A DNA stretch of 64,000 nt from Camelus ferus (Eukaryota), in assembly GCF_009834535.1 (NCBI RefSeq), contig NC_045696.1, forward strand, positions 83,392,001 through 83,456,000. The letters are read 5' to 3'. The position numbers were made by a program, and so were the translations under genes. Below the pieces are notes generated by a model. It saw only the letters and a list, made by a program, of their open reading frames with translations, had not been told where the DNA came from and made no database searches. Below are positions 2,645 to 49,800 of this stretch, piece by piece; the first letter of the stretch is position 1, and every line of letters begins with the position of its first letter.

Positions 2645-3211
2645 CAAGGTTCTGCATCCAGTACAGTTGCAAATGGCTTTAATGCTCTCTGGTCACCATT
2701 TTGAAATTCTTAATGATTTTATCTTTGAGTCTGTGCTTTGTACGTGAAGCTCAATGGGCCGACAGAGCATGCACCAGAAGTTTGGAACTTCAATTCACAC
2801 AGCGTCCTGCATCCTCTGAAAGGGCGCTTGCCTCTTTCTTCCAGGCCGGCCCCTGCCCCACTATGGGCCGCTGCTACTCTCTGCTTGTGGCAGGGGCAGC
2901 TGGGTTGGCCCCTGGTAGGGAGCCTGAGTGTGGGTGCAGGGAGGCAGGGCAGGCGTACCCTGACACTCAGATAGGCTGCCAGCTCCACGGTGCACTACTA
3001 AGGGGCCCACCTGGCAGGAACCTCATGCCCACCCCCAATCAGATACCTAGTGCTAGGGGCTACAGTCCCTTGGAGGTTACCTGTCCACTTGACTATGGGA
3101 AAAGGGGACCGACTCCCTCCCCTCCAGGTGGCGCTTTGGTGGTGGTGGTGGTGGTGGTGGTGGTATATTCTTTCTTTGCACTTAGCTCCACAAATCATGT
3201 AGCTGGCCCTA
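2645..3211 (+). mobile_element. MER45(B)-like hAT-Tip100 DNA transposon
   Basis: ttaatgctctctggtcaccattttgaaattcttaat near the 5' end and tttgcacttagctccacaaatcatgtagctggccct at the 3' end match recalled MER45 termini; GC-rich interior. Confidence 0.75.
3138..3164 (+). repeat. (GGT)9 microsatellite inside MER45
   Basis: Directly visible; source of the poly-Val and poly-His runs in the overlapping ORFs. Confidence 0.95.
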
Positions 3212-26769: not shown

Positions 26770-27045
26770 ATTACAGCAGGAGCCCAGAAATGACCCCAGC
26801 TCAGGTCAGAGTAGTTATCTTTATTTTACCACTTCTTCATTATCTGACTTTTTGGACAAGTTACATAAAGCTTTGTAAGCCTTTGTAACAGTTTTTTCAT
26901 CGTAAAAATGGGAGATATCATGTCTACATTATAGGTTTCCCATGGGAACTGACTACAGTAATGTGTATGGAGGAGCACTGACAGCTGAGCCTAACCTAGA
27001 CAAAGCCCCCCACCCCCCCACAAATGTTAAATATTACCCATTAGT
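26770..27045 (+). mobile_element. MIR SINE
   Basis: ttggacaagttacat...cagttttttcatcgtaaaaatgggagatatcatgtctac. Confidence 0.7.
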
Positions 27046-32589: not shown

Positions 32590-33200
32590 TACACATTTAT
32601 TCATCCAACTACTGTAAGTGTCTACTATAAGTCAAGCATTGTTCTAGATCTGAAGATTTGGCAATAAATAGAAAGTCCTGACAAAGTCATGACTTTTCCA
32701 TTGCAGTGAATGAGAGGCCAAAAACAAGAAATGATTAAGCCAAGAAATGATAATTGTGATGAAGAAAATTAAAGGTCAAAGGGAAATAAAGTGAAGTGGG
32801 TTCTACTTTAAATTGCTTGAGTGACCTTTGAGCAATGGCTTGTGTGGAACCATATGGACATTAGTGGGAAGAACAACCCAGGTGGAGGAAATAGCAGGCG
32901 GAAGGTTTTGAGGCAGGAGTCGACATGCCATGGTCAAGGAAGAGCAAGGATGTACATGAAGGTGGAGGGAGGGAACAAAGGAAGAGTGGTAAGAAATCAG
33001 ATCAGAAAGAGAGCCAATGGCTGGATCCTGCAGGGTTGTAAAGGCAACGGTAAGTACAGGTATCCTTCACTTTCCAAACTGTCTCTCTCTCTCAAATGAG
33101 ACTGGTTATATTTAGACAGCAAGTGGTAATAATAGTTCACATTTTATGCTAAATATGATGGGAAGCCATAAGAATGTTGAGAGGAGGAAAATCACGTATC
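32590..33200 (-). mobile_element. L2 LINE 3' part
   Basis: ttattcatccaac...gtctactataagtcaagcattgttctag...ccaggtggaggaaatagcaggcggaagg. Confidence 0.75.
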
Positions 33201-33723
33201 TGATGTACCAAACACTTTCTGAGATTATCGAAGACAAGGCTCTAAACAGCCCTAAGTAGCCCTATTTGATCCCCATTTTATAAATATAGATAAAAGTAAG
33301 AGTAATTTGCCAGAAACACAAAGCTGTCAAGAGTTGGACTAAGGGTTCAAACCCAGAGTCCAAACCCTGAACCACTCTACCCAATTTAGGACAACTTAAC
33401 TGTTAAAAGTACTAGGCTAAATGTACATACACAGTTCACAGGGAGGAAAAAGTGCTCAGAGGCCCTTGAGATTTCAGGTAGAAATGCTTCCTAAGGTAGT
33501 TGCCATTTTATGTCAGCCGTAGAGGATGAGTAGGAATCCCTCAGGAAGAAAAAAAAGAAAAGGGCATTTTGAATAGAGGAGGCAGTGTGAATGAAGTCTT
33601 GGAAATGTGAAACAGCATGATGCATTTGAGAATTACCTCATCTGTGTGGTCTGAGCATGGCTTCTACAGCAGGGGCATGGAGAGGGATGATGCAAGAATA
33701 GGCTCGCTCTGGAGGGCCCATCA

Positions 33724-33977
33724 TGCTGGGATACGAAGTTTGGATGGAACTGCAAAAACTGGAAGCCACTGAAGGGTTTTAAGAAAGATACCATCATGAA
33801 CAGACACATTTTTTAGAAAGATCACTCACTCTGACCTGAAGAAATCCACCTACACTATGGTCAGGTTAGAGTGTGAGTGACCGTTCTAAAAAATGTACAG
33901 GTCGTGATACTACTTTTCTTAAAACCCTTCAGTGGCTTCCATTTTTTGCAGTTCCATCCAAACATCATATCACAGTA
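33724..33977. repeat. Long inverted repeat: ~116 bp arms with a 21 nt spacer
   Basis: 33738-33786 is the reverse complement of 33915-33963 at 48/49 nt. Inner arms 33787-33839 / 33861-33914 match at about 75%. Spacer is 33840-33860. Confidence 0.97.
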
Positions 33978-34099
33978 CTTAACTGCAGAAGAAATAGCCA
34001 CTGAAGGTTATTACAACAGGTCACTGAGAAATGAACCTGAACACACAGTAGGAGATGGGGAAATGCTGTAGAATGAAAAAAGCTTGCTTACTAATTGGT

Positions 34100-34270
34100 C
34101 ATTGTTAGAGAAATGCAGAAAGCAAGAGCGACCCTGGGCAGGCCATTCAGTCACTTTGTAACTCAATTTCTCATGTATACAATGGCAATAATAATAGCAC
34201 TTATCTCGTAGCATCATGTGAGAATTAAATTAATAAAGACTACAATTTATTTAGTGGCTACCATGTTTTG
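34100..34270 (+). mobile_element. MIR SINE
   Basis: gcgaccctgggcaggccattc...ctcaatttctcatgtatacaatggcaataataatagcacttatctcgtag. Confidence 0.75.
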
Positions 34271-35259
34271 GACTACGCCTGGTACATGTGTTATCGTGGG
34301 TGACTGCCTGGATGGTGGTGTCAATATCAAGAAAAGAATCACCAGGGGAGAAGTCACTGTGCGGGGGAAGGGAAAGGGTAAGTCTACTGTCAGACAAGAT
34401 GAATCTGGGGAGCCTGGGGGACCCCCCCCCGGAGATATTCAATAGGTAGCAGGATGACACTACATGGGTGGGGAGCTCACAAGTGATATCCAGCCGGAGA
34501 TTCAGATCCAAGAGGCTGGGACACAAGGAGAGCAGTGAGAGAACGTGCAGTGTGAGGAGAAACGACGGCCAACACAAAGCCCTGTGGACCACCATCCCCG
34601 CCGTATGGGCATAAGAGGCTGACAAGGAATGGCCAGAAAAGTAGGGGAATAACTAGGAGAGAAACAAGTCCCAGAAACTACGAGAGCAGGGAGTTTCAAG
34701 TAGAAGGGAGTGTCCAGAGTGTAAATCCCAGAAACAGATCAAGTTCAATGAGATCTGGTGATCAGGAGTGGAAGCATAATTCAGGGATGTTGAAGAGCAC
34801 ACAGAGGCTCAGGAAGTAAAGGCAGCCATGGGAAAGAGAAAGAGAAGGCCCGGAAAGGGAAAGAGTCAAATAAGGTGGTATCTTAGGTGGGTCATGGTGT
34901 TGAGGAATGGTTCTGTAAGACTCAAAAGACTTGAGCAAGTTATAGGCAGCAGAGAACAAGCCAGCAAAGTGACAGTGTGAAAAATGCAAGCAAAGAAGAG
35001 AGAAAAAATCTCTGGCACTCGTTCTCGGTCCCAGAGGAGACGGGAAATGCTGGGATCAAGAAGAGACATGGAAGGTGAATCTTGAAAGGGAGAAGGAACA
35101 TGTTTTCCTGAGGCTGGGTGTAATTTTTAAAAGCCACAAGCATTAACCATAATATTTACTTCCCCAGAGAAAATCCTAGACACGTGCTGATTTTATTACT
35201 TGCCATGTTGCGGTAACACCTGTATAGGGTGAGCTAAGGAAAGACAGGAGAAAGAGAAA

Positions 35260-48679: not shown

Positions 48680-49800
48680 CATTCATTCAACATATTATTC
48701 CTACCTACTATTGTACAGAGTGCTGAGAGGACAAAGGCAAACAGATGTGGCTTTATGCCTCAAGAAACTAACAGTGAATTGAGGAAGTCAGGTGAGGTGA
48801 GTAAAGGGATATATTTAAAATACAGCGCAATAATGTCTATGATGAAAGAAGGTACAAGATGCTTTAGGAACCAAACTAATTCAAACTGAGATTAAGGAAT
48901 ATTTTTGCTAAAGGTTCAAAATATCCTAAAGAACAAAAAGCTTTTTTTTCATGATACATGTTTATTTGTTTGCCCCAAAAAAGAACTGTAGTGGAATTTA
49001 GTCAGACCACAAAGAGGCTGAGAGACTGGACAGTCTAGGTGGAGGAAACTAGGTAGAGGAAGACAGGAAGGTGAAAAAACCCTCAGCTCACATGGGGTCC
49101 TTGACAATTTTTCATCTGGACACAAGCTGGCAATAATCAAAGCTCGAAGGTTGCTGGGGTCAGGCTATGAAAGGTTTGGTACACCAAGCCCAGTAGATAG
49201 CAGTTTATTCTGTAGACTATGGGGAAACACTGAGAGATTTTAGCAGAGGAGGGATATGATTAGATGTGTGTTTCAGAGCAACATTTCTGGCAGCCTCGGG
49301 AAGAACAGATAGAAGAGGAAGTGGTTGGTCTACAGAATGGTATGTTAAGAGGCTACTGCATGGCAGGGACTTGAGAGCTTCAACCAAAGCAATGACAGTG
49401 AGGGTGGAGTGAGGGGAAAGACTCGTCACGTTTAGGAGACTGAGTCAACAGTGTTTGGTGATGGATTGTATAAGAGAAAGAACAAGGCTAGCATGGCTAT
49501 TGGATTCCTTATGAGGATGTGTCATTCACCCAGTTAGAATATACAGAAGGAGGAGCATATTGGAAGAGCGGGGAATAAAAGATTGATTTAGAAGTCCCTA
49601 TGGAGTATTCAAAAAGATCTGGTACTGAACATATGGATATAGAGATCCAGAGTCCAGAGAAGTAGTCTGGGTTAGAAATAAACATTTGGTTGGTATTCTA
49701 AGCACTGGATTTGTAAGAAGACATAAAGGAGATTATGAATACAAGAAGAGCAGAGAGCCTACAGTGGAACCAAGCAAAACAAGAGCATTTGAGGGCAGAG
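48680..49800 (-). mobile_element. L2 LINE, degraded
   Basis: cattcattcaacatattattcctacctacta...ggggaaacactgagagattttagcagaggagggatatgattagatgtgtgtttcagag. Confidence 0.75.

Follow-up and report, generated by a model that had tools for sequence, protein, structure and literature searches.

We observed a long fold-back at positions 33726–33975 of the window (the whole 64,000-nt, or 64-kb, stretch of Camelus ferus contig NC_045696.1 that was analysed), in which two arms flank a 21-nt loop (Table 1). The structure is real and striking, and it is best read as belonging to the known template-switch inverted repeats; for the locus itself we found no description in print. The reading that we favour, and consider probable, is that replication template switching long ago produced a local inverted duplication in a repeat relic, and that this duplication was later partly re-copied or extended and has no selected function.

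Table 1. Features of the fold-back and of its surroundings (positions in the 64-kb window)
Feature	Position	Strand	Remarks
Left arm	33726–33839	+	outer block 33726–33737, core 33738–33786, diverged patch 33787–33805, apical stem 33806–33839
Right arm, repeating the left arm in inverted orientation	33861–33975	+	apical stem 33861–33896, patch 33897–33914, core 33915–33963, outer block 33964–33975
Loop, 21 nt	33840–33860	no strand	extent from the arm alignment
Decayed L2-like sequence running into the left arm	33420–33725, limits approximate	−	read from the sequence; L2 label probable
Decayed L2-like sequence resuming past the right arm	33976–34800, limits approximate	−	read from the sequence; label probable
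Another old repeat interrupting the L2-like stretch	near 34130–34260, approximate		label putative
Third partial copy of the core	33981–34013	+ (left-arm orientation)	28/36 columns, 12-nt exact run

Aligned globally against the reverse-complemented right arm, the left arm gave 116 columns, 98 of them identical and 18 non-matching (divergence ∼15%). A reverse-complement repeat that adjoins its source across a spacer as short as 21 nt is as expected of a template-switch product. The right arm recovered the left arm in an nhmmer search (E 4.7e-18), which links the two arms only, and the repeat finder split the fold-back into two inverted pairs, one nested in the other, of 74 nt (88%) and 27 nt (89%). 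In a self-BLAST of the 64-kb window, it was the only adjacent long inverted repeat (E 1e-55), and no further source of the arm sequence was present in the window. The three remaining inverted pairs are dispersed and show 68–79% identity (12522–12645/35444–35564, 76%; 5300–5408/55607–55716, 79%; 41527–41702/49880–50057, 68%); all three most likely represent old interspersed repeats that were copied independently. The initial annotation, made from the sequence alone, had described a core pairing at 48/49 nt and an inner stem pairing at 41/55 columns around the same 21-nt loop, and the global alignment returned identical figures. It had also extended the pairing outwards by ∼14 bp. Outward pairing was indeed present, but its measured length is shorter, at 9/12 columns. 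Some other candidates were rejected: there is no tandem repeat at the fold-back site, a MITE-like palindromic element would have no further copy within the 64 kb, and a BLAST match at 26801–26822 (E 0.026) failed to extend.

The differences between the arms are not evenly distributed. By block, they amount to 3/12 columns in the outer part, 1/49 in the core, 9/19 in the patch at 33787–33805 and 4/35 in the apical part up to the loop. The inner stem consists of the latter two blocks, a subdivision absent from the initial annotation, and the core sits 54–102 nt from the loop. Outside the core, 16/66 columns differ and 50/66 (76%) are identical. This unevenness is significant (p = 0.008), as a 49-column window holding at most 1 of the 17 difference events occurred in 1516/200000 permutations; the block limits were set after inspection of the data, and among these figures only the permutation test allows for that. 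The patchy identity does, as had been argued from the sequence, need explaining. The substitutions between the arms comprise 8 transitions and 7 transversions.

We folded the segment 33700–34000 on both strands and, consistent with the proposed fold-back, obtained a strong hairpin on each. As RNA, the plus strand gave −153.5 kcal/mol (z −18.4) and the minus strand −159.6 kcal/mol (z −15.4), with 0/100 shuffles as good in either case; as DNA, the z was −18.0. The predicted uninterrupted helices are of 21+28 bp on the plus strand and 21+27 bp on the minus strand, out of a total of 102–107 pairs. With contiguous helices of 21 and 27–28 pairs, the predicted structure is a long and highly paired duplex of the kind that characterizes ADAR-edited dsRNA. 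If the locus is transcribed, a long RNA duplex would, according to these predictions, form from either strand, with ADAR editing as a possible by-product. Elsewhere in the window, raw 250-nt folds of the GC-rich segment 2751–3125 equalled those of the hairpin region (−107.5/−103.2 kcal/mol, uncorrected for composition); a TGG repeat lies nearby at 3137–3164.

The flanking relic, which we take to be L2 with its sense on the minus strand, has the same orientation as the left arm, and the L2 presumably picks up again just past the right arm. The peptide LKTLQWLP is translated from both arms and from nowhere else in six frames; we take it to be the end of L2 ORF2. Relative to the L2 consensus, the loop presumably reads in the right-arm orientation, i.e. 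inverted with respect to the flanks. When its orientation was scored against the 49-kb copy, both orientations gave 15, a score that was reached by 499 and 1300 of 2000 shuffles. The comparison copies at 33120–33260 and 49190–49330 share 54–65 of 102–103 positions with either arm in gapped alignment (∼53–63% identity), as against 98/116 between the arms, and are therefore far more diverged, as had been stated. By the same comparison, each arm resembles the other much more than it does the other in-window copies, which upholds the earlier claims that the right arm is a local inverted copy and that the arms are not two independent L2 insertions.

The label of the relic as L2 is probable. The comparison copies scored 36–45.5 over a background mean of 27–28 (sd 7), and the best of 1804 control windows scored 51–54; because the scores of the copies stay within the range of the control windows, L2 homology was not shown by any tool. 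Pairwise and nhmmer comparisons among the in-window L2-like copies gave none above controls, and the L2 nature of 33420–33725 was unconfirmed by Pfam, nhmmer and shuffle tests. The frame at 34254–34652 had no match in Pfam or Atlas, and no reverse-transcriptase relative was found by Pfam, Atlas or a phmmer protein search. At 49062–49615 on the minus strand, a decayed L2-like stretch and its flank were matched unusually well by spurious ORFs of other assemblies (3 clusters, 12 members; 59–68% amino acid identity over 96–132 residues). These ORFs appear to represent the orthologous locus of other mammals. In a phmmer search, the 49220–49444 frame returned 7 proteins, of which 3 are unannotated look-alikes of the same locus and 4 are repetitive chance matches.

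The 64-kb window is a large intron or an intergenic region. Pfam gave 0 matches in 59 of the 146 window ORFs of at least 70 aa and 0 in 8 more frames, and a rough scan of the window for splice sites and codon usage yielded 12 weak candidates and no convincing exon. No host gene was identified by these means, and ‘intronic’ in the initial annotation can only be a tentative label. The CpG observed/expected ratio exceeded 0.45 in one 500-bp bin only (39501).

We also looked for relatives of the fold-back in sequence collections and in the literature. The gapped two-arm pattern occurred at 2 loci in metagenome contigs, neither being window-like outside the pattern; in viral and prokaryote contigs, scans for one or two motifs had 0 matches, and blastn of 33420–34800 against plasmids and phages gave none. 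These collections are mostly microbial and are not mammalian genome sets, and the results are uninformative on conservation. Three protein searches with translated hairpin frames (two of the three plus-strand frames and one two-sequence alignment, of limited lengths) produced 2, 3 and 8 candidates, none of them scoring, in collections that are not mammalian genome sets. Four 13-nt motifs of the apical stem occurred in 0 main texts; supplements or miRNA databases could still list the locus. PMC13155455, in the text available, treats perfect repeats with short spacers and has no direct bearing on the fold-back.

The third partial copy of the core, which the initial annotation had not mentioned, begins within 6 nt of the right arm. 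Only 1/1492 same-sized control windows scored as high as this copy against the right arm, and 3/1492 against the left arm. Together with the right arm, it forms an alternative and weaker predicted hairpin (33915–34018, −33.5 kcal/mol). The third copy fits repeated template switching; similarity already internal to L2 could presumably also account for it.

We infer the switch event, its order, its age and its neutrality; no outgroup lacking the right arm was found in the collections searched. A polymerase copying the dead L2 fragment would have jumped to the opposite strand near 33840–33860, copied ∼115–135 nt backwards and returned near its point of departure. This would yield an inverted repeat whose short spacer is probably inverted, in the order 3-1-2-4 or 1-3-4-2 of the four-point model. 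Both arms would then have decayed over a long period, leaving the divergence seen in the non-core blocks. The fold-back may in turn have promoted more switching, by which the 49-bp core would have been re-copied from arm to arm more recently and the third partial copy would have been left behind. Equally open is a history in which the inner repeat is old (13 events over 54 columns) and ∼61 bp (4 over 61) were added later. Divergence would date the non-core blocks to ∼73 Myr (40–124) and the core to ∼5 Myr (0.1–29); these ages are rough, depend on post-hoc blocks and assume 2e-9 substitutions per site per year. The core would likewise stay paired under purifying selection on both arms, and a single genome cannot separate such selection from conversion.

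Several observations argue for template switching. The arms are adjacent, the spacer is 21 nt and the 64 kb holds no second source. A contiguous near-perfect block abuts an abruptly diverged one, as expected of a copied tract, and the fact that the near-perfect tract starts just outside the most diverged patch fits the mechanism. Arm-to-arm conversion or template switching, which the initial annotation had named as possible causes of the patchiness, correspond to a published mechanism (PMC5453318, PMC8794818, in the portions available). In the four-point model (Loytynoja and Goldman 2017, PMC5453318), the orders 3-1-2-4 and 1-3-4-2 give an inverted repeat and an inverted spacer in one event and make up 23% of the human–chimp events given in the available text, while type 3-2-1-4, with 31% of these events, makes an inverted repeat without an inverted spacer. 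Template switching is described as both creating and correcting stems (Monttinen and Loytynoja 2022, PMC8794818). The length of the tract, on the other hand, stands against a switch: 115–135 nt exceeds the published examples compared, which are of 28–83 nt in the accessible part of PMC10710096 and up to 59 bp in that of PMC8794818.

Two further accounts of the arms themselves have to be weighed against a switch. They could be two independent, oppositely oriented L2 fragments of the miR-28/151 type that were homogenised later by conversion, an arrangement that is documented for L2 miRNAs in the available text of PMC6433296. The most diverged block of the arms (9/19) does near the divergence of unrelated copies. 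We nevertheless regard such an origin as highly improbable, as the arms mirror each other over their full length up to the loop and even the non-core blocks retain an identity (76%) above that of the other copies. The fold-back could also be a chimera from assembly or library preparation. Fold-back reads are a known type of artefact. Such a chimera would, however, be near-perfect, whereas the arms differ in 18/116 columns. All 93 sampled 31-mers of 33400–34300 were present in 14 of the 24 listed sequencing runs, 8 of which are marked as possible sources and 6, from 3 studies, are not so marked; these matches are to contig indexes rather than long reads, and the library kind is unrecorded for the six non-source runs. 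Because all the sampled words recur in these runs, including the six non-source ones, and the arms have diverged by 15%, we find an artefact extremely improbable.

Template switching as the origin of the fold-back is compatible with a function acquired later, and the proposals of function concern either a small RNA or a long duplex. A young or unannotated L2-derived miRNA or siRNA locus, in which Drosha and Dicer would cut the apical part at 33806–33896 and the patch would serve as the basal junction, is in our view very unlikely. Its geometry is favourable: the 36-bp stem and 21-nt loop of the apical hairpin match the preferred miRNA-type geometry given in the available text of PMC10710096 (35-bp stem, loop of at least 10 nt), the apical 91 nt have an MFEI of 1.13 on the plus strand and 1.18 on the minus strand, and both inverted L2 pairs (PMC6433296) and template switches (PMC10710096) are described as giving rise to miRNAs or their stems. 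Rfam, however, gave 0 matches at the gathering score in the 64 kb, and the best of 12 weak matches reached 23.4 bits against a cut-off of 70, which rules out a known RNA family. Among 8 cut registers, the Microprocessor motifs CNNC and apical UGU/GUG were found in 0/8 each and the basal UG in 1/8 (minus strand). Many true miRNAs lack some of them. The apical stem (4/35 differences) is moreover worse kept than the core (1/49), and the best-paired block, owing to its distance from the loop, is off the position of a pre-miRNA duplex. The putative precursor appears to lack a single-stranded base, because the predicted pairing runs on for ∼80 columns below the apical stem and the patch. The base rate is also low (∼0.9%), 57 of the 6,054 miRNA-sized template-switch hairpins being annotated miRNAs in the figures available from PMC10710096.

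A selected long RNA duplex of template-switch origin, with a 49-bp helix preserved within a pre-mRNA or lncRNA for a role in ADAR editing, splicing or retention, appears rather unlikely. Its uninterrupted helices are long, the core is far better paired than the rest of the arms, and the repeat, which at the assumed rate looks tens of Myr old, is yet undeleted. For comparison, the median number of contiguous pairs in human dsRNAs is 31 in the edited set and 17 in the unedited set (Table 1 of PMC11838218, as available). In the same text, those human dsRNAs that are conserved (∼1,500 of 5.1 million predicted ones) are for the most part short, weak and seldom edited; this and the fact that the Pfam and splice-site scans identified no host gene or exon in the window argue against the proposal. 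G–U tolerance showed no strand preference (3 on the plus strand versus 5 on the minus strand, p = 0.73; 8 sites, low power). As the G–U pairs split 3/5 and 7/15 substitutions are transversions, no selection on a single RNA strand is evident at this low power, and the mismatch spectrum looks unselected, in agreement with neutrality. RNA-labelled runs contain 0.37, 0.24 and 0.18 of the 33400–34300 words, and three guessed-RNA runs, one of them from a second organism, contain 0.74, 0.41 and 0.24; these fractions neither place reads on the hairpin nor give the strand, and carried-over DNA is possible. Function as RNA is unsupported by these data and is not refuted by them, and the same is true of the suggestion in the initial annotation that the duplex is under selection or that the site is a small-RNA locus. 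More broadly, the fold-back could be an old structured RNA of mammals or artiodactyls that arose from L2 by template switching and is held by selection. It would then be either an unannotated small-RNA hairpin from the region of the L2 ORF2 end rather than the 3′ tip, or a 49-bp editing duplex in which repeated copying between the arms makes them co-evolve and the third copy competes for pairing and could switch the fold. We consider this unlikely.

In comparison with L2-derived miRNAs, the arms of the fold-back translate to what we take to be the L2 ORF2 end, its second arm was copied locally from the first, and it has no Rfam match. The likeness to miR-28, miR-151, miR-708, miR-95 and miR-325 (Petri et al. 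2019, PMC6433296) is that of a hairpin made of two oppositely oriented L2-like pieces, and the known L2 miRNAs are traced, in the available text, to a pair of separate L2 elements and, within the consensus, to its 3′ end. With the template-switch miRNA hairpins hsa-mir-4713 and mmu-mir-3086 (Monttinen, Frilander and Loytynoja 2023, PMC10710096, as far as available), it shares the origin from a local inverted copy, a probable history of more than one switch and the miRNA-like apical size; its stem, on the other hand, is ∼3 times longer, the processing motifs are largely absent, and it is known here from sequence alone. It resembles the four-point template-switch mutations as a local reverse-complement copy beside its source, with a short spacer and a putative later arm-to-arm correction or spacer inversion. 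It differs from those examples in that its tract (115–135 nt) is longer and it is far older and decayed. The fold-back lies in a repeat relic, a class that was left out of the polymorphism analysis in the available text of PMC10710096.

As a neutral scar, the fold-back would be a clear and unusually long case of template switching building and then maintaining a hairpin in dead repeat DNA. Orthologues would allow successive switches at this one site to be dated, and would help to test whether old mammalian fold-backs are kept alike by recurrent copying or by selection. That distinction is of consequence for RNA-structure screens, in which arm-to-arm copying looks like compensatory evolution. 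If the fold-back were to prove functional in small-RNA or editing data, it would represent a second route from L2 to regulatory RNA, by self-duplication of one element as against two insertions.
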